From a bacterium (GTDB lineage: Bacteria; Patescibacteriota; Minisyncoccia; Phycocordibacterales; UBA9973): DNA of 64,000 bases. Position 1 is the stretch's first letter. Each line of letters starts with the position of its first letter. The DNA lies in NCBI GenBank assembly GCA_037130655.1, contig JBAXSP010000003.1, forward strand, positions 68,684 to 132,683, read 5' to 3'. The translations under genes were made by a program, and so were the position numbers. Positions 4,367 to 64,000 of the stretch are shown here, piece by piece. Under the pieces are notes generated by a model, which searched no databases, had not been told where the DNA came from, and saw only the letters and a list, made by a program, of their open reading frames with translations.

Positions 4367-5254
4367 ATGAAAAACCAAAAAAATACTAAAATAGCAGAAG
4401 AAAAAAACGGGGTAATGAGTATTGTATTTACTTTTATATCAATCTTTTTTTTTGTTGGTTTTATTTATTGGACAGCTGTTCCGTATATACAAATGGTTCA
4501 ATGGAAAAAAGGAATCGGTGCAATGCTTGCGGGAGATGATACAAAATTTCCAAATGATGACTTCATATATCGTCCGTACAATAATTCAATTCAATCAGGT
4601 ATTAGAATCGCTTCTTTCTCGAATGTTTTCAATCAGTATGTTCGTGGTGAAAGAACTAGTTTTACACCGCTATATGACATTGCTTTTAATCGTGAAAAAG
4701 AGTGGGTAGATGCACATCCGTATCGATATGATCATTTGCTCGCTATCGCCAAAGGATATGAGTACAAAGCAAATCTAACAGGTGATACCTCGTATTATCT
4801 ATTGGCAGATGAGTATTATCAAAAAGCACTGGCACTTTGTCCAGAACGACAAGATTTGCTGTATGCGTATTCGCAACACCTTTCAAATACTGGCAAAAAA
4901 CAAGAAGCGATTGATTTGCTTCAAAAAATGCGTAAACAAAATCCTGGTATTGCTCAAACAGGTTATTATTTGGGGACTGTCTATGCCGCAGGGGATAAAA
5001 CAGGATATGATACTGCGTTGACTTATCTAGAAGACTATTTTGCAACAGGTAATCCTATTGTAGATAAAACAGTTATTAAGACATTGTATGAACATTTCTT
5101 TGTTTATTATTATGACAAGAAGGATCTCGGTCGCTTTACTGTTGTCGCTCGAAGAATGATTATTGCAGATCCTTCACAAGCAGATGTGTACAAAAAAATA
5201 TCAGATTATATTGATACGAATAAAACAATGCCGTATCTTAATATTCACAACTAA
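4367..5254 (+). CDS. N-terminally membrane-anchored TPR-like protein, partner of Wzy_C copy 1
   Basis: N-terminal TM helix followed by a VPYIQMVQWKKG motif and a helical-repeat (TPR-like) C-terminal domain. Paralog of 19488-20102. Confidence 0.6.
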   Translation: MKNQKNTKIAEEKNGVMSIVFTFISIFFFVGFIYWTAVPYIQMVQWKKGIGAMLAGDDTKFPNDDFIYRPYNNSIQSGIRIASFSNVFNQYVRGERTSFTPLYDIAFNREKEWVDAHPYRYDHLLAIAKGYEYKANLTGDTSYYLLADEYYQKALALCPERQDLLYAYSQHLSNTGKKQEAIDLLQKMRKQNPGIAQTGYYLGTVYAAGDKTGYDTALTYLEDYFATGNPIVDKTVIKTLYEHFFVYYYDKKDLGRFTVVARRMIIADPSQADVYKKISDYIDTNKTMPYLNIHN

Positions 5255-5255
5255 T

Positions 5256-6101
5256 ATGCTTATTGTACGATTGCAAGGAGGGTTAGGGAATCAACTATTT
5301 CAGTATGCTTTTGCTCGTGCGCTTTCATTGAAACAAAATAAATCAGTTTTTCTTGAAAAATCATTCAAACAACACAAGGTTTTTGGTATCACTCAAAGGG
5401 AGTATGCACTGGATGTTTTTGCTATAGAGGCACAAGTGTTCGAAGAAAATACTTTTCATAAAATAACAAGTGTTATAAAACGGGTTCTCCAAAAAATAGT
5501 TCATATAGAGTGGCGAGGGCTAGAAAAAAGTTTCGCATTCGATCAAAAAATGTTGACTATAAAAGACGGTTATTTTGATGGCTATTGGCAAAGTTATAAA
5601 TATTTTGAACATATAGAAAGTATCATTAAAAATGAACTTGTGTTGAAAGTTATTTCACCTGAAATAAAACAATTTGCTGATCAGATTGAAACAGAGAAAT
5701 CTTTGGCGATACATATTCGCCGAGGAGATTTTGTTAATAATAAAAAACATGAAGTTGTAAAAAATGATTATTATGAGAAAGCGATAAAAATAATCGAATC
5801 AACACATGCGGTAGAACATATCTATGTATTTTCAGATGATATTGCATGGTGTGAAGAACATCTTCATTTTGATTATCCAACAACTTTTGTACCGCTTGCG
5901 TATGAAGGAAAACACGGAGAAGGTCATCTTCATATGATGAGTAAGTGTCAGTATTTCATTATTCCAAATAGTACTTTTGCGTGGTGGGGGGCATGGCTTT
6001 CAAACAGAAAAGATAAAATTGTCATTACTCCAAAAATTTGGCGAAATGATATACTTATTCCACCAGACGATTTACTTCCACCAGATTGGGTTAAAATATA
6101 A
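5256..6101 (+). CDS. GT11-family glycosyltransferase (alpha-1,2-fucosyltransferase-like)
   Basis: GT11 motifs RLQGGLGNQLFQYA, HIRRGDF and IIPNSTFAWWGAWL. Start taken at the internal ATG at 5256, 1 nt after the upstream stop (the ORF-track start 5163 overlaps the upstream gene). Confidence 0.8.
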   Translation: MLIVRLQGGLGNQLFQYAFARALSLKQNKSVFLEKSFKQHKVFGITQREYALDVFAIEAQVFEENTFHKITSVIKRVLQKIVHIEWRGLEKSFAFDQKMLTIKDGYFDGYWQSYKYFEHIESIIKNELVLKVISPEIKQFADQIETEKSLAIHIRRGDFVNNKKHEVVKNDYYEKAIKIIESTHAVEHIYVFSDDIAWCEEHLHFDYPTTFVPLAYEGKHGEGHLHMMSKCQYFIIPNSTFAWWGAWLSNRKDKIVITPKIWRNDILIPPDDLLPPDWVKI

Positions 6102-6104
6102 ATT

Positions 6105-6923
6105 ATGCAAAAACCTCGTATTACAATTATTCTACCTGCTTACAACGGTGCTCGTTGGATTGAAACGGCCATCAAAAGTGCACAAAATCAAACATTTACT
6201 GATTTTGAATTACTCGTTTTTAACGATTGTTCAAAAGATAATACCGAAGAAATCGTACTTCGATTGGCCGAACAAGACAATCGGATTATTTATACAAAGA
6301 ATGAAAAGAATCTTGGCGTTCAGAGAACTCGTAATATTGCGCTCCAAAAAGCTCAGGGTGAATATATAGCTGAAATTGACCAAGACGATGAGTGGATCGA
6401 CAAGGATAAATTACAAAAACAACTTTCGTTTCTAGAAAACAACAAAGACTATGTACTTGTTGGGACCGGTGCAATCATGATTGATGAGAAAGGGAATGAA
6501 ATAGCTCGATATTTGATGCTAGAAACTGATAATCAGATCAAGAATAAACTCTTGCGTGCAAACTGCTTCATTCACTCAAGTGTGATGTATCGCAAAGATA
6601 TCGTAATTGAAATTGGCGGTTATACAATAGAAAAAATGTCTGAAGATCATGACCTTTGGCTTCGCCTCGGAAGACACGGGAAATTTATGAATTTTCCAAC
6701 GTATTCAGTTAAATACCTTTTTACACCGAGTGGATATAACTCTCAAGACAAAATTCTTCGATTGAAACAAAATTTACTTTTTACCAAAGAACATAAAGAT
6801 TTTTACCCAAACTATGTTTATTCAGTTATCTATGGTTGGGCAAAAATTTTATTTACACCAATTTTCAATCTTTTGCCGACAAGGCTAAAAGGATTCTTTC
6901 TTTGGTTGCACAAAAAGATCTAG
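6105..6923 (+). CDS. GT2-family glycosyltransferase
   Basis: ITIILPAYNGARWIETAIKSAQNQTFTDFELLVFNDCSKDNT and a DQDDEW (DxD-like) motif, i.e. GT-A fold. Confidence 0.8.
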   Translation: MQKPRITIILPAYNGARWIETAIKSAQNQTFTDFELLVFNDCSKDNTEEIVLRLAEQDNRIIYTKNEKNLGVQRTRNIALQKAQGEYIAEIDQDDEWIDKDKLQKQLSFLENNKDYVLVGTGAIMIDEKGNEIARYLMLETDNQIKNKLLRANCFIHSSVMYRKDIVIEIGGYTIEKMSEDHDLWLRLGRHGKFMNFPTYSVKYLFTPSGYNSQDKILRLKQNLLFTKEHKDFYPNYVYSVIYGWAKILFTPIFNLLPTRLKGFFLWLHKKI

Positions 6924-7901
6924 TTATTTTACCGTGCCTAATTTAATATATTCTTCGCACGTATTTTTAATATGTTCTTCAATAGAAAGTATGTTTTTGA
7001 AACCAATTGTTTTTTCAATTTTTTCTTGTGACAAAATACTTTGATTGGTCAAAGCTTTGAGTCTTGCGAAGGTCAAAGGGTTTTTCTTTCTTAAAATAAA
7101 ACATACAACTAGTAGTACGGTACTTATTCCAAAAGCTATAAAATAGGGAATCGTGTATGTTTTTCTTGTGATTTTTGGTGTGGCATTTTTGACAATCTCA
7201 TCCATTTTTTTGTATGCAACTGCATTGCTTAGGATATAGATATTACCAAACGAGCTATCGGTTTTTCCGAGTAGTTCTAATGCGCGAATCACTTCGTTTA
7301 TATGGACGATATTATAATATCCAGTACCAATATTTTTATATAAACCACTTCTCATACTTTGGATTAGCTGGAGAAAACTACCACCTTCTTTGTTGTTTCC
7401 GGTGCCAAATATAGTACTAGGACGCAAAATATGGGCCTTTAGACCCTGTTTGATTGCTTGGACGACAACTTGCTCGGCTCTGTATTTTGATCGGCCGTAA
7501 GCATTGTGTGGATGTGGAATGGTTTCTTCTGTAACAATCTTGTCTTTTGTTTGTCCGGTAATTCCGGCACTTGAAAGATATATGAGTGTACAGTTATTTT
7601 TCATTGCTTGAGCTACAATATTTTTTGTCCCGAGTACATTCACTCGTTCAAGTTCTTCTGTATTGTAAATTGATCCCGCGCAATGATAGATAATACGCAC
7701 ATCATTTGGGATTTCAAAAGAATCGGTAATATCAGCTATAATAAAACTCACCCGATCGTTATTTTCAAATAGGGGAGATTTTTTTCTAGATAAAATATAT
7801 ACAAAACAACCTTCGTCCAATAAAGCTGTTACGAGTTTTGCTCCAACATATCCGGTACCACCCGTAACAAGGATTTTTTTGTTTTCCGAAATATGTTCCA
7901 T
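6924..7901 (-). CDS. NAD-dependent epimerase/dehydratase family protein with C-terminal TM segment
   Basis: Rossmann motif LVTGGTGYVGAKLV. Short-chain dehydrogenase (SDR) catalytic YxxxK motif (YGRSK). Hydrophobic C-terminal helix. Confidence 0.75.
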   Translation of the reverse strand: MEHISENKKILVTGGTGYVGAKLVTALLDEGCFVYILSRKKSPLFENNDRVSFIIADITDSFEIPNDVRIIYHCAGSIYNTEELERVNVLGTKNIVAQAMKNNCTLIYLSSAGITGQTKDKIVTEETIPHPHNAYGRSKYRAEQVVVQAIKQGLKAHILRPSTIFGTGNNKEGGSFLQLIQSMRSGLYKNIGTGYYNIVHINEVIRALELLGKTDSSFGNIYILSNAVAYKKMDEIVKNATPKITRKTYTIPYFIAFGISTVLLVVCFILRKKNPLTFARLKALTNQSILSQEKIEKTIGFKNILSIEEHIKNTCEEYIKLGTVK

Positions 7902-7904
7902 ATA

Positions 7905-8573
7905 TTAGTGAGATTTCTTTGTAAAACTTTTGATTTTTCTTTTTAGCCAGTGTTCCATTTTCATTTCTTTTTCAAATACACGAGGATTGATAAGATTTAA
8001 TATTCCTTTTCGGTTTTTGTTGAAGAAATTATAGGTATAAATATTTTCAGTATTATATGTCGATGTAAATAGTTTTTGACTACCTTTTTGAATAATCGCA
8101 CAACCTTCATCGGCATCGATTGTGTAGATTTGCACATCAGGATTTTCTGTTCGCAATTTTAAGATCGCTTTCCAGACATCGCCGTGCCAAACACTCGAAG
8201 CTCGTTCGCGTCGCTGAGTGATTTCTCTGGTTGGATTACAGTCATGGACAACAATTGTTCCGCCATCATTGAGCCATTCCAATCCATTGATAATATCTTT
8301 GTATGCTTGTTCGAAAAGGTGTAACCCATCGATAAAAATGATGTCATATTTCATTTGTATATGACTCGCAAAAAATTCATCAGAAGTCATCTGAAATGTC
8401 GTATCAACCGCTGGGTCAACACCGTGTTTTGTCTCTATGTTGATACTTGTGTGACTGTAACCTGGTTGAGCAGGAGTATTGACACCTATTTCTAAATAGG
8501 TTTTGTAGTTATTTTTTTTGATAAGCGTATTGATAATTTCTGTGCGAGTCAGTGTTTTTAGTAGTTGTCTCAT
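7905..8573 (-). CDS. Class I SAM-dependent methyltransferase (putative sugar or glycan O-methyltransferase)
   Basis: YLEIGVNTP and IIFIDGLH motifs and the TIVVHDCNP acidic patch are typical of CmcI/Methyltransf_24-like folds. It sits inside the glycan cluster. Confidence 0.55.
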   Translation of the reverse strand: MRQLLKTLTRTEIINTLIKKNNYKTYLEIGVNTPAQPGYSHTSINIETKHGVDPAVDTTFQMTSDEFFASHIQMKYDIIFIDGLHLFEQAYKDIINGLEWLNDGGTIVVHDCNPTREITQRRERASSVWHGDVWKAILKLRTENPDVQIYTIDADEGCAIIQKGSQKLFTSTYNTENIYTYNFFNKNRKGILNLINPRVFEKEMKMEHWLKRKIKSFTKKSH

Positions 8574-10348
8574 TTGAATAATTCTTTGTATTTATCTTTA
8601 TTCTCCTTAATATACCGTGGTAGACCCTTTTCATCAATATGATAAGCAAAGTTTCTTCCAGCGACATCTTGATTATTTTGTAATCGTTCAGTTATCTGGT
8701 TTTTTGTTGAATCATTGTTTAGTTCTTGGTGTGAGAAGGACTCGATTTTTTCTTTGACCCGATTCTCGCCACCTTGATAGGTGAAATGCCAGCCACCATT
8801 GTTTACAAAAGTATACGGTGTCTTTCTCTTTGTGCGAAGATGATTGAGACAGTTGTTTTTGATGTTTTTGTACTTTGTCGCCAAAGTGCCAGTCCAGGCT
8901 TCATTCGATTTGTTGTTCAAATAATAGCAATAGACTGCTTGTCTGAATTTATAGATGTCATCTTTTTGGTAATCAATTACTATTTCTGGATTCCAGATTT
9001 CATCAAGGTCAGAGACAAAACAGAAATCATTATCAGAAAGATTTGTTAATGCGTGCTTCACAGATTCCTTTTCATAGAAATCACGCAAGAAATGATTCAT
9101 TCCTTTTGGAATATTATCTGAAGTTAGTGTTTGTTTCAAAATTGTTTTTTCAAGTTGAGATATACTGCCTTCATTTAGTCGTTCTTGTGCGTCAGTAAAA
9201 TCTTGCAACGGATGCTCTATGACATAGTGAATAATTTTGTGTTCAAATTGTTTGAAACGTTCTTTGTTTTTCTCATAAAACAATTCTTTTGGTTTACCTG
9301 AGTGGGTGAGTGTGGATTCAACGATAACGAAATAATCAACATATGGATCAAGAATGTTAAGTCGGATATCAAGTAATTCAAGTTCGTTGAAGAAATTAAA
9401 AATATCATAGATTTTTATCGTTTTACGATAATTGGCAATCTCTGCTATTTTTTTCTTTGAAGGATTCTTATAGGTTTTAGATAGGAGTGCATTTTTTTTG
9501 ATTAAAAGAATGTTTTTGATTTTGCGATATATTTTTTGAATCAAAATTTTGGTATTCATAAAGATTTTTTTGTATAAGATATTTGCAAGAATAGAAGCAA
9601 ATAAGAAATATAACTTTCTACTGATCGGTTCGGGTTTTGTTTCTGTATTTATAAAATCTTCATCAAGTGGTACGAGAATTTTTGGGTTGAACTCGAAATT
9701 GCTCATCATAAGCGTAAACATAGTTCGTTCAATCATGTGTGTTTCTGCTGGTTCCTGACAATGAGACATAAAGAGTCGTAGATTTTGATAGACTACTTTC
9801 GGTACTTTCAAAATACGTTCTTTTGGTGCAATGAAATCTCCTCCAGGAGAAAAACGGACATAGAGTGGAATTACCGGATCTTTGTATAAAAAACGAATGA
9901 AGTCATTGTGGTTGTGGAAATATTTATGTTTCCAGTATTTGAAATACCAACTACTGTTGATTTCACATAAACCGCCATCTGGAGACAGGTATGCGACAGG
10001 GAATATAGTGTCGTATGTTTTCCAGTCTTCAAGTGGTGTATACCAAGTATTGTTCATTACCTTGTCGAATGTTTCTTTTCGAACATGACGTGGAAAAGAC
10101 CAGCCTTTGGCAAAGATAATACAATCAGGAAGGTTGTCGTAATTGTCGATGATATATGTAAAATATTCATATGAATTATATCCGTTGTTTGAGCCAGGTA
10201 ATACTTTTTGAAAATCAATTGTTTCTGGTATTGCCACTTTGTCACTGCGTTTATTATAAATAACATAGTTGTCTGTATATTCAGGCACCCACGAAAGATC
10301 ATTATTGAAATTTGATATAACCAAGAAGTTTTTTTGGATTTTTTTCAT
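8570..10348 (-). CDS. Two-domain glycosyltransferase: unknown N-terminal domain plus GT17-like C-terminal domain
   Basis: The C-terminal IYDIFNFFNELELLDIRLNILDPYVDYFVIVES matches the bacterial GT17 (MGAT3-like) signature. The N-terminal ~240 aa has no motif I recognise. A K-rich hydrophobic linker separates the two. Confidence 0.55.
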   Translation of the reverse strand: MKKIQKNFLVISNFNNDLSWVPEYTDNYVIYNKRSDKVAIPETIDFQKVLPGSNNGYNSYEYFTYIIDNYDNLPDCIIFAKGWSFPRHVRKETFDKVMNNTWYTPLEDWKTYDTIFPVAYLSPDGGLCEINSSWYFKYWKHKYFHNHNDFIRFLYKDPVIPLYVRFSPGGDFIAPKERILKVPKVVYQNLRLFMSHCQEPAETHMIERTMFTLMMSNFEFNPKILVPLDEDFINTETKPEPISRKLYFLFASILANILYKKIFMNTKILIQKIYRKIKNILLIKKNALLSKTYKNPSKKKIAEIANYRKTIKIYDIFNFFNELELLDIRLNILDPYVDYFVIVESTLTHSGKPKELFYEKNKERFKQFEHKIIHYVIEHPLQDFTDAQERLNEGSISQLEKTILKQTLTSDNIPKGMNHFLRDFYEKESVKHALTNLSDNDFCFVSDLDEIWNPEIVIDYQKDDIYKFRQAVYCYYLNNKSNEAWTGTLATKYKNIKNNCLNHLRTKRKTPYTFVNNGGWHFTYQGGENRVKEKIESFSHQELNNDSTKNQITERLQNNQDVAGRNFAYHIDEKGLPRYIKENKDKYKELFK

Positions 10349-10355
10349 ACTAGTT

Positions 10356-11342
10356 TTACAGTGCTTGTCGGATTATTTTGTATAATTTTCGAACCTTGCG
10401 TAACATATTTCTTTGAAATAGAAACAATCGTTTTTTTTCATAGATTACTGGTGTTGTATCCCTTTCTCCTCGTTTATAGTCTTTCATATCAGCGATACAT
10501 TCTTCGTATGACTGTAGTTGAAAAGTTCGATCCATATATTTCCATCCACTGGTAATATTGTATCCGCAACCCCAATAACCGTCTGAGGTATTCCATTGTG
10601 ACCAGTATTTCGGTGCAATGCAGTATTTCAAGTTTTCATTCAACCAAGCAGGGAACCAAGCAAAACTAGAATTTGAAAGAATTAAATAGTGAGCATTTTT
10701 TACAACGACATAATCTTTTGCAATATTAAAATGAAGCACATCAAAAGCAGGGAAGAACTTTTTGGCAGTGATCACATCATCAGTAATGACAATAAAGCGA
10801 AAGTCAGGATTGATTTTGCGCATATGAGTGACTGCGTTGTCCCAATACTCTTGCGGAAGAAATACGTGAGGAATACCAACATATTCACCACCACGAAAAT
10901 TGATTACGCAAATGTGTTCATTTGCGTAATCAAAACATTCATACGTATCTTTTACTTTCAACCACTCACGAATTTCATCTTTGTGTGACAAGATGTATTG
11001 CTCGTCTTGCATGATACCGTCGATTTTGGTGTTGTCAGCTACGTTCATCAAGTCTGCATCGTAAGTACGAATATCAACACCAGTTTTTGGATGGAGGAGT
11101 TGTTTTTCTCGGTAATAATGAGTTATTCCTTCAGGTAGTGTGATAGCAGGTCCTCCTTCAGGACCAGTACCACCAATTACTTGTTCGCCGAAATCTAGAC
11201 TCATGAAATCCAAACATTTGAATTTTTGCGGATTCATGATGCCGTATTTATACCCTTTATTTTTGGCAATTACTCTTGTCACCACATAGCACCACAGTTG
11301 GTTTCCAAGTCCTTGTCCGTTGTATATTTCGGTGACAATCAT
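10356..11342 (-). CDS. GT11-like glycosyltransferase, second copy
   Basis: N-terminal GQGLGNQLW and C-terminal LILSNSSFAWFPAWL mirror GT11 motifs I and III of ORF 5256-6101. Confidence 0.6.
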   Translation of the reverse strand: MIVTEIYNGQGLGNQLWCYVVTRVIAKNKGYKYGIMNPQKFKCLDFMSLDFGEQVIGGTGPEGGPAITLPEGITHYYREKQLLHPKTGVDIRTYDADLMNVADNTKIDGIMQDEQYILSHKDEIREWLKVKDTYECFDYANEHICVINFRGGEYVGIPHVFLPQEYWDNAVTHMRKINPDFRFIVITDDVITAKKFFPAFDVLHFNIAKDYVVVKNAHYLILSNSSFAWFPAWLNENLKYCIAPKYWSQWNTSDGYWGCGYNITSGWKYMDRTFQLQSYEECIADMKDYKRGERDTTPVIYEKKRLFLFQRNMLRKVRKLYKIIRQAL

Positions 11343-23469: not shown

Positions 23470-27046
<3,577 letters not shown>

Positions 27047-27171: not shown

Positions 27172-27280
<109 letters not shown>

Positions 27281-41880: not shown

Positions 41881-41885
41881 TAATG

Positions 41886-41973
41886 CGGAACCGGCGAGAT
41901 TCGAACTCGCGAGGGTTTTTACACCCTGCCTCTTTAGCAAAGAGGTACGTTAGACCACTCTGACACGGTTCCA
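41886..41973 (-). tRNA. tRNA-Ser (anticodon GCU), type II
   Basis: Minus-strand fold: acceptor GGAACCG/CGGTTCC, anticodon loop TTGCTAA, long variable arm, T-arm GCGAGTTCGAATCTCGC, discriminator G. Confidence 0.8.
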
Positions 41974-42040
41974 ATTCTCGTATCATAGCAGAATTTAAGG
42001 GCTTTTTCTATGACAAATTATTTGCTATACTCTGCGGAAC

Positions 42041-42127
42041 GGAGGATTGGATGAGTGGTTTAAATCAACGGTTTACTAAACCGTCGGCTCGTAAAAAGGC
42101 CCGTGAGTTCGAATCTCACATCCTCCG
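42041..42127 (+). tRNA. Type II tRNA (Ser-like: 3-bp D-stem, long variable arm, G73). Anticodon reads ACU by manual folding, which is unusual.
   Basis: Acceptor GGAGGAT/ATCCTCC, anticodon stem ACGGT/ACCGT with loop TTACTAA, T-arm GTGAGTTCGAATCTCAC. TGCTATACT extended -10 at 42023-42031. Confidence 0.65.
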
Positions 42128-42296
42128 CAAAATAGGAAGTCACTGGAAGTGACGACCATGTTTTGCGCAGTACACAAACAAGGAACGAAGTGACTATGTT
42201 TTGCCTCCGCAACGAAGACAGTTTTATCGGCAGAACCCGAGTGTTTAGAAGTATGGAGTGGTCCGATTGCTATAATCTTGATATCTAAGCTAAAAT

Positions 42297-59911: not shown

Positions 59912-60328
59912 TTATAAATGAGTCTTTTTGGGTTGTTGTATTGATAGCTCTAATTCATTTATTTTTTCCCAATTTTGAGCTAAATACAGAAGTAGTTCTT
60001 TTTCTTGTAAAACTCTCTCATTGTTTTCAATTTCTTCTTCTTTTGAAAATTTTCCATTAAAGTTTTTATTACCTATACCTTTTTCCCATCTTATCACTTC
60101 TTCCGCGTTATTGATTAAAAGCTGTACACACAGTCTTTGGTTTTCGGATCCTCGTTCATCCAATATACTATTGAAAAACGATCGAAGATTACTTAATGCG
60201 TAGTATCGAAAAATTTGTTCTTTTGATAAAGGTGTTGTTATATAGCTATCGGTAAACGATGTACGTATTCTATACAAATCGCCTTTTTTGTGAATTTCGT
60301 CTCCCATGTTTATTTTATTTTTATCCAC
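59912..60328 (-). CDS. Hypothetical protein
   Basis: 138-aa ORF with no recognised domain. Confidence 0.4.
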   Translation of the reverse strand: MDKNKINMGDEIHKKGDLYRIRTSFTDSYITTPLSKEQIFRYYALSNLRSFFNSILDERGSENQRLCVQLLINNAEEVIRWEKGIGNKNFNGKFSKEEEIENNERVLQEKELLLYLAQNWEKINELELSIQQPKKTHL

Positions 60329-60404: not shown

Positions 60405-60683
60405 ATGAACACCGAAGCAGTACAAAAATTAGCTACTATGATGCGGATGGAAATCTCACCTGAAGAGGCGGAGTCTATTGGTCGCGACATGGACGCAGTC
60501 ATTGGGTACATTGACCAGCTCAGTCAAATCGATACAAGTGCTATCCAAAACACTGCGCCATTGCTTTCAAATATCGCTCGCGAAGACGTAGCAACAAATG
60601 ACAGCGGAAGTTATACAGCACAAATTCTTGCTGAAGCACCAGTGGTTGATAATGATTTCGTCAAAGTTAAAAAAGTAATGTAA
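60405..60683 (+). CDS. gatC: Asp/Glu-tRNA amidotransferase subunit C
   Basis: 92 aa, VQKLATMMRMEISPEEAESIGRDMDAVIGYIDQL. Precedes gatA. TGCTAAAAT 6 nt before the ATG. Confidence 0.8.
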   Translation: MNTEAVQKLATMMRMEISPEEAESIGRDMDAVIGYIDQLSQIDTSAIQNTAPLLSNIAREDVATNDSGSYTAQILAEAPVVDNDFVKVKKVM

Positions 60684-60689
60684 CGAGGG

Positions 60690-60775
60690 ACAAAGTATGT
60701 CAGTATAGCAGAGTATAGAATATAGAAAATGCAGTTAGTCCGGTCTATATTCTAAAATACTATATTCTGAAATAC
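60690..60775. repeat. Intergenic inverted-repeat element (related to 51790-51880)
   Basis: GTATGTCAGTATAGCAGAGTATAGAATATAGAAAATG...TCTATATTCTAAAATACTATATTCTG. Confidence 0.55.
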
Positions 60776-60785
60776 TAAAAATTAT

Positions 60786-62207
60786 ATGATTGATCTAACA
60801 AATATAACAATAGAAAAGGCGCACAATTCACTCACTAATCGTGAGTATACGGTGCGTGAACTTGTTGATGCATATTTGAAAAACATTGATGAAAAGAATG
60901 CGAACATCAATGCGTATTTGGAAATATACAAATCACTCGATGAACAAATTGTTCGTGCGCAAAAAATGATTGACGATGGAAGTGCGGGAGTTATGACCGG
61001 TATCCCTGTTTCAATCAAAGACAATATGTTGGTGACCGGCGAGCATGCAAGTGCTTCATCAAAGATGCTTGAAGGATTTGTTGCGGTTAGTGATGCAACG
61101 GTAATTGCAAAATTGAAGTCTGCCGGAGCGGTGCTAATCGGTCGCACAAATATGGATGAATTCGCTATGGGTTCATCAACTGAGACAAGTGCGTATGGTA
61201 TCACACGCAATCCACTGAATCCTGACTATGTGCCAGGTGGTTCATCTGGTGGTGCTGTGTCGTCTGTAGCGATGGACGGAGCATTGGTAGCACTCGGCTC
61301 AGATACTGGAGGATCTATTCGTCAGCCAGCTGGGTACACTGGACTTGTTGGTTTCAAACCGACCTATGGAGAAGTTTCTCGTTCAGGAATTATTGCAATG
61401 GCCTCATCACTTGATCAAGTTGGTCCGATTGCAAAAACAGTTGCAGATGCAGAAATACTTTTCAATATAATTCGTGGTGTTGATGTGATGGACGAAACTT
61501 CTATTTCAGAAACTGTTGTACGTGACACACGAGAAATTAAAAAAATTGGTGTGCCGACTAACTGGATTGAACAAGGTGGAATTGAAGCGTCAGTCAAAAA
61601 GAATTTTGATGAGACGGTGGAAAAATTAAAAAATGAAGGATATGAAATCGTATCAGTCGACTTACCAATCACGCAGTACTCACTCGCAGTCTACTATGTC
61701 TTGAACACTGCTGAAGTTTCAAGTAACCTAGCTCGCTATGACGGTCTTCGTTATGGATTGAGTAAAGAAGGGAAGACATTGCAAGAAGTCTATGAAAAGA
61801 CTCGTGGTCAAGGTTTCGGTAAAGAAGTTCGTCGTCGTATTTTGCTCGGTGCATACATTCTTTCTCATGGATATTATGACGCGTATTACAAAAAAGCCCT
61901 CGATGTACAAAATGTGATTCGTGGAGAGCTTGCAGGTGTGTTCAAAAAGGTAGATGTCATCATGACACCGACAGCACCATTTCTTCCATTTAAATTTGGT
62001 GAAAAAATGAATGACCCGATTGCTATGAAATTGGCAGACCTTTTCTTGGCACCAGCAAACATTGCCGGTAATCCCGCACTCTCGATTCCGTCAGGTGATG
62101 CAGAAGGCAATTTGAAACACAGTACACACTTTTTGGCTCCAATGCTTGCAGATGATGCACTGTTATCATTTGGAAAAAAAGTAGAAAAAATAATGACCAA
62201 TTACTAA
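60786..62207 (+). CDS. gatA: Glu-tRNA(Gln)/Asp-tRNA(Asn) amidotransferase subunit A
   Basis: Amidase signature GGSSGGAVSSVA, Ser-cisSer-Lys triad context, 473 aa. The last 5 codons plus stop lie inside the repeat arm 62191-62219. Confidence 0.9.
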   Translation: MIDLTNITIEKAHNSLTNREYTVRELVDAYLKNIDEKNANINAYLEIYKSLDEQIVRAQKMIDDGSAGVMTGIPVSIKDNMLVTGEHASASSKMLEGFVAVSDATVIAKLKSAGAVLIGRTNMDEFAMGSSTETSAYGITRNPLNPDYVPGGSSGGAVSSVAMDGALVALGSDTGGSIRQPAGYTGLVGFKPTYGEVSRSGIIAMASSLDQVGPIAKTVADAEILFNIIRGVDVMDETSISETVVRDTREIKKIGVPTNWIEQGGIEASVKKNFDETVEKLKNEGYEIVSVDLPITQYSLAVYYVLNTAEVSSNLARYDGLRYGLSKEGKTLQEVYEKTRGQGFGKEVRRRILLGAYILSHGYYDAYYKKALDVQNVIRGELAGVFKKVDVIMTPTAPFLPFKFGEKMNDPIAMKLADLFLAPANIAGNPALSIPSGDAEGNLKHSTHFLAPMLADDALLSFGKKVEKIMTNY

Positions 62208-62312
62208 TGACTAGTGACTAATAAAAGTGCGAAGCCTACTGCTTCGCACTTTTATTATTTTATTTTTAATTAGTCATTAGACACTGGTCATTAGTCATTA
62301 CCCTCTGTTATA
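62191..62312. repeat. Left ~123-bp inverted repeat (stop-rich arm, hairpin GTGCGAAGC-loop-GCTTCGCAC and T-tract, then TAATTAGTCATTAGACACTGGTCATTAGTCATTACCCTCTGTTATAC)
   Basis: Reverse complement of 63490-63612, differing only in the hairpin loop. Confidence 0.85.
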
Positions 62313-62322
62313 CTTAATCCAT

Positions 62323-62979
62323 ATGGAACAAGCTCCAATTGTCGGTGTCGTGAATAATACTGCAGGTAAGGTTGACCCAACCTATTTGAACCTAGATTAT
62401 ATTTTTTATCAGGTGTACCATTTTTTTGCATCATTGTTTGGTGGAGGTAGTGGTAGTGGAACAGGTGGTGGTTCAAGTCAAAGTGCAGGAACTTCTTTTA
62501 TCATTTTTATGAAAAATCTCTCAGCGGTCATTTGTATTTTCCTCATCACGGTTATTTTGTATTGCTTGGTGCGTTTATATGAAAAGAAAATAGAAAAAGA
62601 AAAAGCTGCAAAAGAAGCAAAAGAAGCAGCAGTAAATCAAAAAGTAGAAAATGCTTTCAAATCACAAAATGATAAATGGGAAAACATTGTTGACCACAGC
62701 ATGACTGCAAATCCGAACGATTGGCGACTGGCGATTATCGAAGCAGATAGCATGCTTGATGAATTGACTCAAAATTTGAATCTCTCAGGTGAGAGTCTTG
62801 GTGAGCGGTTGAAGAGTGCAAGTCGAAATAGTTTTCAAACAATTGATTTGGCATGGGAGGCTCACAAACGCCGAAACAAAATTGCTCATGAAGGATTGTC
62901 GTATGATCTGACGCAAAGAGAAACAAAAGAAACAATAGAAATGTACCGCCATATTTTTGAGGAGTTTAAAATCATATAG
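62323..62979 (+). CDS. Bitopic membrane protein with Gly/Ser-rich N-terminal region and cytoplasmic HEPN-like (Rx4H: RRNKIAHEG) C-terminal domain
   Basis: A TM helix (FIIFMKNLSAVICIFLITVILYCLV) separates the GGGSGSGTGGGSS region from a ~120-aa helical C-terminal domain ending in the motif WEAHKRRNKIAHEG. Confidence 0.5.
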   Translation: MEQAPIVGVVNNTAGKVDPTYLNLDYIFYQVYHFFASLFGGGSGSGTGGGSSQSAGTSFIIFMKNLSAVICIFLITVILYCLVRLYEKKIEKEKAAKEAKEAAVNQKVENAFKSQNDKWENIVDHSMTANPNDWRLAIIEADSMLDELTQNLNLSGESLGERLKSASRNSFQTIDLAWEAHKRRNKIAHEGLSYDLTQRETKETIEMYRHIFEEFKII

Positions 62980-63088
62980 TAATTACTAGTGACTAATGAC
63001 CAATGACTAGTAATTTCGAAAACCAAAAAGTGCGAAGCCTACGGCTTCGCACTTTTATTAGTCACTAGTCATTAGTAATTGGTCATTA
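62980..63088. repeat. Central palindromic terminator module (TAATTACTAGTGACTAATGACCAATGACTAGTAATT ... GTGCGAAGCCTACGGCTTCGCAC TTTTATT AGTCACTAGTCATTAGTAATTGGTCATTA)
   Basis: Same hairpin and arm sequences as the flanking repeats. Lies between the convergent stops of genes 62323 and 63094. Confidence 0.8.
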
Positions 63089-63093
63089 CATTT

Positions 63094-63480
63094 CTACCCT
63101 ATAATAATTGTATCAAAATATTCTTTCATCTCTCGGTCTTCCATTTTGATAGTACTATTACTGCAATCAAGTACCGCAACGTCTGCTCGCAAGTAGGTGA
63201 TTTGATGAGGGAAGTCTGGAAGAAAACGTTTGCCCAATGCTTCGATAATTCCCGCATGAATTTTTTGTTTGATGTCATTTTTGTTTCCCAAGACATCGAC
63301 ATCGAAATTTGTTGTACTTGCTTCTTTGATTTCTACAAAAAGTTTTGCATTAATAATATCCACCTCTAAGATTTCAGGGTCTTCAATGATTTCATTCAAC
63401 TCAGTTTGATTTCCAATTATTTCAACAATTTTATTTGGAAGCTCTTTTGGAGTTGCTTCTGGTATGAGATTATTTTCCAT
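63094..63480 (-). CDS. Hypothetical acidic 128-aa protein, partner of the HEPN-like gene
   Basis: ORF convergent with 62323-62979 inside the repeat-bracketed cassette. No recognised domain. Confidence 0.45.
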   Translation of the reverse strand: MENNLIPEATPKELPNKIVEIIGNQTELNEIIEDPEILEVDIINAKLFVEIKEASTTNFDVDVLGNKNDIKQKIHAGIIEALGKRFLPDFPHQITYLRADVAVLDCSNSTIKMEDREMKEYFDTIIIG

Positions 63481-63489
63481 ATAAAATAA

Positions 63490-63612
63490 GTATAACAGAG
63501 GGTAATGACTAATGACCAGTGTCTAATGACTAATTAAAAATAAAATAATAAAAGTGCGAAGCCGTAGGCTTCGCACTTTTATTAGTCACTAGTCATTAGT
63601 AATTGGTCATTA
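63490..63612. repeat. Right ~123-bp inverted repeat (reverse complement of 62191-62312)
   Basis: GTATAACAGAGGGTAATGACTAATGACCAGTGTCTAATGACTAATTAAAAATAAAATAATAAAAGTGCGAAGCCGTAGGCTTCGCACTTTTATTAGTCACTAGTCATTAGTAATTGGTCATTA. Its last 3 nt form the TAA stop of the minus-strand helicase gene. Confidence 0.85.
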
Positions 63613-64000
63613 TCTACGTGATTGTACAAACGTCAGAGAATTTCCTGTTTTTGTTCCACGTCCTGTTCGTCCAATACGGTGCACATAGGTGTCGTAGGTA
63701 GAAGGAAGGTCGTAGTTGATCACGTGAGTGATGTCAGCAATATCGATACCACGAGCAGCAACGTCTGTTGCGATCACGACATGAGCTTCTCCATTTGCTA
63801 GAGATTTGACTGCACGATCGCGTTCACGGTTGCGCATATCTCCGTGGAGTGCCAATGCTTTGAATCCGCGAGTTTTTAGTTCGTGTGCCAATTCATCAAC
63901 ACTTCTTTTCATTTCTCGGAAAATAAGCACTTTACTTGCTTCAGGTTTGATAAGTACTTCGTGTAGTTTTTCGATTTTATCTTTTTGATCAACGAAACGA
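63610..64000 (-). CDS. DEAD-box RNA helicase (C-terminal part; gene continues beyond the window end)
   Basis: Helicase-C motifs VIATDVAARGIDI (V) and HRIGRTGR (VI). The reading frame stays open to coordinate 64000. Confidence 0.8.
   Translation of the reverse strand, partial: RFVDQKDKIEKLHEVLIKPEASKVLIFREMKRSVDELAHELKTRGFKALALHGDMRNRERDRAVKSLANGEAHVVIATDVAARGIDIADITHVINYDLPSTYDTYVHRIGRTGRGTKTGNSLTFVQSRR

Follow-up and report, generated by a model that had tools for sequence, protein, structure and literature searches.

A predicted terminator–promoter module repeated in three adjacent spacers around a conserved, gatC-gatA-linked HEPN-like gene of a Paceibacterota genome

Introduction

Membrane-anchored HEPN proteins of the DUF4145 (PF13643) type have been proposed to cleave RNA at the inner face of the membrane in a stimulus-dependent way (Anantharaman et al., 2013; PMC3710099). 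According to the same work, the HEPN active site has an Rx4-6H motif where helix 3 ends; the arginine is followed by a polar residue, helix 2 contributes an acidic residue, and an insert separates helices 2 and 3 (PMC3710099). Here we describe a locus at which a HEPN-like gene is enclosed by a long inverted repeat. It lies in a 64,000-nucleotide (nt) stretch of DNA, called the window below, taken from assembly GCA_037130655.1 (contig JBAXSP010000003.1, positions 68,684 to 132,683 of the forward strand), whose source is placed by GTDB in Patescibacteriota; Minisyncoccia; Phycocordibacterales; UBA9973. The locus belongs to the ordinary chromosome of a Paceibacterota genome (Patescibacteria, or candidate phyla radiation (CPR)). 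Between gatA and a DEAD-box helicase gene it holds two convergent open reading frames (ORFs), ORF1 and ORF2, with one arm of the repeat on either side and a third, partial copy between them. An earlier note on this DNA had read the arrangement as a mobile or recombination-prone toxin/immunity cassette. We consider it fairly probable, as the best explanation of the whole, that one terminator–promoter module has been copied locally into three adjacent spacers, and that ORF1 is a conserved gene and not cargo.

Several kinds of palindromic or inverted-repeat DNA offer themselves for comparison. REP, Correia/CREE, RUP and BOX elements are short palindromic intergenic units that occur in tens to hundreds of copies per genome. 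Invertible segments of the fimS type, and the invertons of Bacteroides, have short recombinase sites beside a recombinase gene and flip a promoter relative to its gene. Finally, bidirectional intrinsic terminators between convergent genes share with the module described below a G+C-rich stem flanked by an A-run and a T-run and placed directly after the stop codons.

Results

Anatomy of the repeat

The two long arms, A and C (Table 1), are each 139 nt in length, 97% complementary and 1146 nt apart in the inverted-repeat search. Base-by-base comparison revealed a single mismatch across 62190–62316, at 62240 in the top of the hairpin; three more follow at 62317, 62319 and 62320, after which both arms have ATATGGAA, which contains both start codons. 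In the partial third copy, module B, positions 63026–63093 are 91% complementary to 62186–62253, and its outer arm and stem are exactly those of arm A, with the loop flipped. The near-exact inverted repeats of about 123 bp in the earlier note are therefore real and slightly longer than was thought (with the one mismatch within 127 nt), and its third copy between the genes is present, though partial.

At the core of the module is a hairpin, AAAAGTGCGAAGCC-loop-GGCTTCGCACTTTT, with an A-run on its 5' side and a T-run on its 3' side. Arrays of 7-nt units (TAATGAC/TAGTGAC), reported by Tandem Repeats Finder as period-7 arrays of TAATGAC/ATTAGTC, flank this hairpin and lengthen its stem to about 45 bp. 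The marks of the module are TGACTAATAAAAGTGCGAAGC and the TAATGAC arrays. In the window the hairpin stem has six exact matches, representing both strands of three hairpins, and the heptamer array has 13 matches against a chance expectation of 0.1; every one of them falls within the three copies. The heptamer arrays carry TAA, TGA and TAG across all three frames. The stop codons of both flanking housekeeping genes are supplied by the repeat, as had been pointed out before: the gatA stop (62205–62207) and the last five codons of that gene lie inside arm A, and the helicase stop (63610–63612) is the first triplet of arm C. GatA ends in IMTNY here, and in LVSK or IVSSK in relatives.

Metagenome assemblers are able to create inverted duplications, and the contig of one relative (L001) is itself a mirror-image assembly. 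However, that the repeat is an artefact of this kind in a metagenome-assembled genome (MAG) is exceedingly improbable, given that gene order is identical in four independent assemblies, that the arms are not the same close to the genes, where the ORF2 side resembles the state of the relatives, and that purifying selection acts on both enclosed genes, which are intact. The L001 contig (ENA ERZ3602260 NODE_676) is self-mirrored over about 5071–10537, with HIT, DEAD helicase, ORF2 and ORF1 repeated in reverse around 7500; this mirror is probably an assembly artefact and unrelated to the repeat of the window.

Predicted terminators and leaderless promoters

All three hairpins were called terminator-like by the terminator scan, with stems of 14–18 pairs that include 6–7 G–C pairs. 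They sit 3' of the stops of gatA, of ORF1/ORF2 and of the helicase gene, and they have the G+C-rich stem and the T-run of an intrinsic terminator. Folded as RNA, the units of about 120 nt reach −47 to −51 kcal/mol with z-scores of −8 to −13 (arm A, −47.3 kcal/mol, z=−9.9; arm C, −51 kcal/mol, z=−12.7; module B, −49.9 and −48.0 kcal/mol, one per strand). Because an A-run precedes the hairpin and a T-run follows it, such a unit would be able to act in both directions. Module B is accordingly predicted, as in the earlier note, to terminate both of the convergent genes, ORF1 and ORF2, and on this the terminator scan and folding on both strands agree. It differs from other bidirectional terminators in that its stem is drawn out by the 7-nt arrays, and in that the module is triplicated within 1.4 kb, with two of the copies fused to a putative leaderless promoter. 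A search of the locus against Rfam gave no family, only sub-threshold matches to generic hairpins (miRNA precursors, traJ_5).

The promoter scan found TGGTCA-18-TGnTATACT on both long arms only, where the inner array ends in TGGTCA and the −10 box ends 8 nt before the ATG. A wider look at a crude set of 64 genes in the window showed a TAnnnT box 5–11 nt before the ATG in 30 of them, often TATAAT, TACAAT or TATACT at a distance of 6–8 nt, and a Shine-Dalgarno-like motif in one. The same geometry of box and ATG is found in other genomes 5' of those ORF1 homologs whose spacers are long. With Shine-Dalgarno motifs so scarce, and TAnnnT boxes so common close to the ATG, leaderless transcripts are to be expected, and leaderless mRNAs seem to be the norm in the source genome. 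Each long arm would combine a terminator for the incoming housekeeping gene with a leaderless promoter for the outgoing one.

Probable origin of the inverted repeat

Close relatives keep the order gatC-gatA-ORF1-ORF2(−)-DEAD(−), with ORF1 88–89% and ORF2 84–92% identical to those of the window, and at the position of the helicase gene they have intact DEAD/Helicase_C genes of 449–451 aa. The three spacers of L001 and of L004 carry other hairpins than those of the window. In L004 a similar hairpin, AAAAGAGCGAAGC-loop-GCTTCGCTCTTTT, follows gatA and has 7-mer arrays, and in L001 related CGGAACCC-type hairpins are found on both flanks. When the six flanking spacers were aligned, one invariant block emerged, TATACTTAnTnnATATGGAA, which lies 5' of ORF1 and of ORF2. 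Since this block is common to all six spacers, the short inverted homology that it represents (promoter and start) is older than the long repeat. The long repeat itself must be young, because its arms differ at 1/127 positions in a genome whose synonymous divergence (dS) from the relatives is at least 0.7 (range 0.7–3.0). At the three inner mismatches the arms are gene-specific: TTATTTTATATG on the ORF2 side here is like TTATTTCATATG in the relatives, and the ORF1 side retains its own, different leader.

On this comparison the long inverted repeat is most likely a recent intralocus duplication or gene conversion, possibly recurrent in the clade. The short ancestral inverted homology probably seeded it. 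Recent copying or gene conversion within the locus would then have put the module into three neighbouring spacers, in which the arms would end the gatA and helicase transcripts and start those of ORF1 and ORF2, and the middle copy would end both convergent genes.

We also weighed whether the module could be a small palindromic mobile element (a miniature inverted-repeat transposable element (MITE), or a REP or Correia-like unit) inserted three times at this locus, a reading that we judge rather improbable. It would account for a palindromic intergenic unit of about 110 nt with arms built from repeats and for the changed 3' end of gatA relative to relatives, and a second, unrelated palindromic insert parts gatC from gatA in this genome only. 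Furthermore, REP, Correia/CREE, RUP and BOX units may likewise act as terminators and promoters and alter the ends of genes. However, the module is present in three copies in the 64-kb window, all clustered within 1.4 kb, and an exact 21-mer search (arm and hairpin) gave zero matches in metagenome and viral contig collections. No target-site duplication is evident at its borders beyond a possible TA, its identity does not stop at the palindrome but takes in the promoter and start codon, and the repeat-armed hairpin at the same gatA–ORF1 position in L004 is compatible with descent in place. Similarly, the finding of different hairpins within the same gene order is better explained by local duplication or gene conversion than by a MITE. 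Thus, of the MITE-like or terminator-like carrier suggested earlier, the terminator-like half is kept as a prediction and the MITE half is judged less likely. A search with the degenerate hairpin core gave 26 metagenome matches, all of them lone AAAGAGCGAAGC-type terminators on unrelated contigs (GC 27–57%) that lack heptamer arms; the degenerate core was rejected as a trace of the module elsewhere, being a generic and uninformative hairpin.

As in fimS-type segments and the Bacteroides invertons, inverted repeats here bracket a short segment, and the 1.15-kb stretch between the arms might be invertible by homologous recombination across them. Arms of 139 nt are long enough for RecA-type recombination, and their near-identity (97%) implies ongoing exchange. 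Nevertheless, we regard inversion as unlikely. The segment has the same orientation in the window and in four independent assemblies of relatives (L001–L004), and no recombinase gene is adjacent. The arms are also much longer than the short recombinase sites of invertons, and each holds the promoter and start of its own gene. Since promoter and start codon would travel with each gene, a flip would be neutral for expression.

Conservation of ORF1 behind gatC-gatA

A scan of one genome per GTDB species identified at least 571 genome stretches that encode a relative of ORF1, and synteny was counted in the best 80 of these loci. GatA is encoded directly upstream of the ORF1 homolog, on the same strand, in 79 of the 80; the exception (L064) has a histidine kinase there. 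Distant homologs (36–44% identity; contexts L005, L007, L115 and L116) likewise come right after gatC-gatA, with a gap to gatA of 9–33 nt and often with ligA upstream. Between the stop of gatA and the first ATG in the ORF1 frame, the median spacing is 16 nt, with no more than 50 nt in 63 of 77 loci, which is operon-like. No relative of ORF1 was found in 2.9 million viral contigs, and no empty site, in which gatA would adjoin the helicase gene across a single repeat, was seen among the loci compared. ORF1 thus comes third in a gatC-gatA-ORF1 block of deep conservation and is not mobile cargo, and the cassette of the earlier note can be set aside as a mobile entity. Its observation that no transposase or recombinase lies inside holds, as neither ORF matches such a family.

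In many bacteria this operon slot is held by gatB. Six-frame translations of the window and of 114 loci gave no match to gatB signature motifs, and gatB is not adjacent there. Searches of the literature for HEPN together with gatCAB or with Patescibacteria, and for GatB in Parcubacteria, returned nothing relevant; the gatCA-HEPN linkage is apparently undescribed, with no account of it found in the searchable literature.

The downstream side of gatC-gatA-HEPN is variable. It may hold prfB, LAGLIDADG-like or GIY-YIG-like ORFs, large serine recombinases or tRNA genes, and a 225-aa helix–turn–helix-like ORF recurs there in different genomes. Examples of this variable spot are L007 6066–8588, L115 5106–5720 and loci L009–L088.

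ORF1 as a predicted membrane-tethered HEPN-fold protein

The 412 homologs of ORF1 in the protein collection are named only as hypothetical proteins (Patescibacteria, Parcubacteria, Nomurabacteria). When 42 members are aligned, a conserved N-terminal LNLEY..F helix comes first, then a linker rich in Gly and Ser, one strongly hydrophobic segment and, by way of a charged linker, the C-terminal domain, which is highly conserved. In ORF1 itself the one strong hydrophobic segment spans residues about 57–84, and the protein carries the motif RRNKIAHEG. The transmembrane (TM) segment is present in 42/42 members with a Lys-rich C-terminal flank, which by the positive-inside rule places the C-terminal domain in the cytoplasm. 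Among the invariant residues of the alignment are E140, A141, D142, W178, H181, R184, N185, H189 and G191. The ratio of nonsynonymous to synonymous substitution rates (dN/dS) between the window and close relatives is 0.06–0.09 for ORF1, similar to that of gatA (0.07–0.12).

In the structural model a HEPN-fold domain is predicted over residues about 112–218. R184-N185-K-I-A-H189 lies at the end of helix 174–193, with N185 as the polar residue after the arginine; E140 and D142 lie in helix 131–151, and a short helix (159–165) comes between the two. The model thus has the Rx4-6H motif with its polar residue and the acidic residue of helix 2, and its best structural matches are HEPN toxins. At the sequence level, 5/42 members match Pfam DUF4145 (PF13643) at E≤0.01 (best 2.1e-06), one matches Cas_Csm6_HEPN and two match ABC-3C CTD11 at the same threshold, and one database homolog (P0087) was already annotated with PF13643. 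The ORF1 of the window has no PF13643 match at E≤1, and gave nothing significant against PADLOC and NCBIfam. The C-terminal domain of ORF1 is therefore assigned, by modelled fold and by motif, to the HEPN superfamily, so that the HEPN call of the earlier note is borne out at that level; its suspected DUF4145 similarity is seen in a minority of homologs and falls short of threshold for the window protein.

Among described proteins, ORF1 comes closest to the membrane-anchored HEPN proteins of the DUF4145 type. Like them, it has a single TM helix followed by a predicted cytoplasmic HEPN domain in which Rx4H closes helix 3, the arginine precedes a polar residue and helix 2 bears acidic residues. 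However, the TM region of the ORF1 family lacks the WP signature of the Vibrio-type group, and the family is fixed behind gatC-gatA across Paceibacterota, whereas DUF4145 HEPN proteins are found in restriction-modification and defence contexts. ORF1 is probably a membrane-tethered HEPN domain that faces the cytoplasm and is dimeric, and its intact Rx4H suggests a metal-independent RNase or an RNA-binding module at the membrane.

ORF2 and the question of a toxin–immunity pair

ORF2 encodes an acidic protein with an isoelectric point (pI) of 4.48, in line with its first description. It has three homologs only, all in the closest relatives, and an exhaustive HMMER search of 1.84 billion representatives returned its own cluster and P0124. 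The latter, a 687-aa tandem-repeat protein whose score derives from 8 repeated stretches, was rejected as spurious. No match was found in Pfam, NCBIfam or PADLOC, including MNT, antitoxin and defence families. The structural model is of low confidence (predicted local distance difference test score, 46.9), and Foldseek against the PDB gave nothing at E≤0.001. Among the genes that follow ORF1 in 80 genomes, no remote homolog of ORF2 was detected; it is missing from the neighbourhoods of the other 79. However small its family, ORF2 has a dN/dS of 0.045–0.11, like gatA and ORF1, and is therefore a real gene. It is a lineage-specific orphan inserted in the variable region downstream of ORF1.

These data bear on the proposal that ORF1 and ORF2 form a lineage-specific toxin–immunity or abortive-infection pair, in which the acidic ORF2 product would restrain the HEPN RNase and both genes would be served by identical promoters. 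The predicted HEPN fold of ORF1, its intact Rx4H and its structural likeness to toxins are all consistent with such a pair, as are the small size, acidity, adjacency and purifying selection of ORF2 and the promoter–start motif that both genes have in all three lineages. However, in about 570 genome stretches ORF1 is found with no ORF2 and in a conserved chromosomal position, the two genes are convergent and not co-transcribed, and ORF2 has no relatives beyond its own cluster and no antitoxin-like similarity, nor could an MNT fold or motif be shown from its low-confidence model. A pair of this kind is improbable, and neither the toxin/immunity cassette nor the MNT-type antitoxin envisaged for ORF2 is supported.

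In the HEPN-MNT systems (Shewanella SO_3166/SO_3165, PDB 5yep; HEPN/MNT 7ae2) the HEPN protein has an MNT partner, and none was identified here. Furthermore, ORF1 carries a membrane anchor, its neighbour is convergent instead of lying in the same operon, and its chromosomal position is conserved in hundreds of species, not patchy or mobile. Because partner, operon structure and patchy distribution all fail, the locus is not a HEPN-MNT toxin–antitoxin module.

Other features of the window

The coordinates of the locus are collected in Table 1.

Table 1. Features of the gatC-gatA-ORF1-ORF2 locus (positions in the 64,000-nt window)
Feature	Position	Strand	Basis or remark
gatC, first gene of the conserved gatC-gatA-ORF1 block	60405..60683	+	ORF call; homologs in relatives are PF02686 GatC; tblastn synteny
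gatA, amidase subunit	60786..62207	+	Pfam Amidase, E=1e-124
Repeat arm A	62190..62328	none	Inverted-repeat search, mismatch map, terminator and promoter scans, Tandem Repeats Finder, RNA fold
Arm A heptamer arrays	62191–62222 and 62269–62300
Arm A predicted terminator hairpin	62219–62257		T-rich tract after it
Arm A −35-like TGGTCA	62285–62290
Arm A TG-extended −10-like TATACT	62309–62314		ORF1 ATG at 62323
ORF1, 218 aa, single-pass membrane protein with predicted C-terminal HEPN-fold domain	62323..62979	+
Module B, partial third repeat copy	62980..63088	none	Inverted and direct repeats, terminator scan, RNA folds
ORF2, acidic 128-aa orphan	63094..63480	−	Lineage-specific
Repeat arm C, mirror image of arm A	63475..63613	none	Repeat search, scans, fold
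DEAD-box helicase gene, 3' part, continuing beyond the window edge	63610..64000	−	Pfam Helicase_C, E=9.7e-32

Upstream of the block, an imperfect palindrome of about 100 nt (60684–60785), with short repeats of the AGTATAG/CTATATTCT type, separates gatC from gatA. The gap between these genes is only 1–2 nt in L001 and L004, and the palindrome is thus a second lineage-specific palindromic intergenic insertion at this operon. Between ligA and gatC, the opposite strand encodes a 138-aa ORF without a Pfam match (59912–60328, − strand), and counterpart ORFs of 133 and 180 aa are found at that ligA–gatC site in L001 and L004.

Several RNA genes were also identified in the window. The 23S rRNA match at 23475–27043 is 3569 nt in length compared with 2925 nt for the Rfam model, so that insertions make up about 640 nt of it; inside it lies a palindrome (26376–26459) whose arms are 41 nt long. 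A 5S rRNA gene follows the 23S at 27172–27278, with no adjacent 16S in the window. A divergent tRNA-Ser pair occupies 41885–42128, of which the member at 42041–42128 (+) has the anticodon ACT according to ARAGORN. A serine tRNA with A34 (anticodon ACT) would be unusual.

Discussion

The explanation that we favour, local copying of a terminator–promoter module beside a conserved gene, has several points against it. The terminator and promoter calls are consensus matches only, and the 14 promoter-like sequences counted over the whole region are not above chance (10.5 expected from shuffled sequence). Copies of the module were counted in the 64-kb window only, and the MAG may contain further ones. 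The copying route may have been gene conversion, template switching or transposition. Furthermore, the ORF1 of the window lies below the Pfam HEPN thresholds (best, HEPN_RiboL-PSP, E=0.44), and when PDB chains were searched with a sequence profile built from the family of ORF1, TM-helix noise alone was returned and no solved HEPN structure; with no such match at the sequence level, the family assignment rests on predicted fold and motif. A functional pair would likewise account for the identical promoters of ORF1 and ORF2, and conserved adjacency to gatCA is no proof of a functional link.

What this locus shows, on our reading of the repeat, is terminators and leaderless promoters that turn over and are homogenised among neighbouring spacers in a genome that seems to be free of Shine-Dalgarno motifs. 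With the false lead of a mobile cassette removed, the linkage of gatCA to a HEPN protein becomes a more interesting outcome than the cassette that was first flagged.

Most HEPN proteins belong to conflict systems, and a conserved, operon-embedded HEPN protein in the ultra-small genomes of the CPR is therefore a candidate housekeeping RNase, possibly one related to tRNA. A more specific proposal, to which we attach little weight at present, is that the HEPN protein is a housekeeping RNase or tRNA-binding module coupled to GatCA throughout Paceibacterota, with ORF2 as an orphan partner acquired under an identical promoter. If it were true, the protein might, for example, remove or sequester mis-acylated Glu-tRNAGln or Asp-tRNAAsn, or tie transamidation to the membrane.

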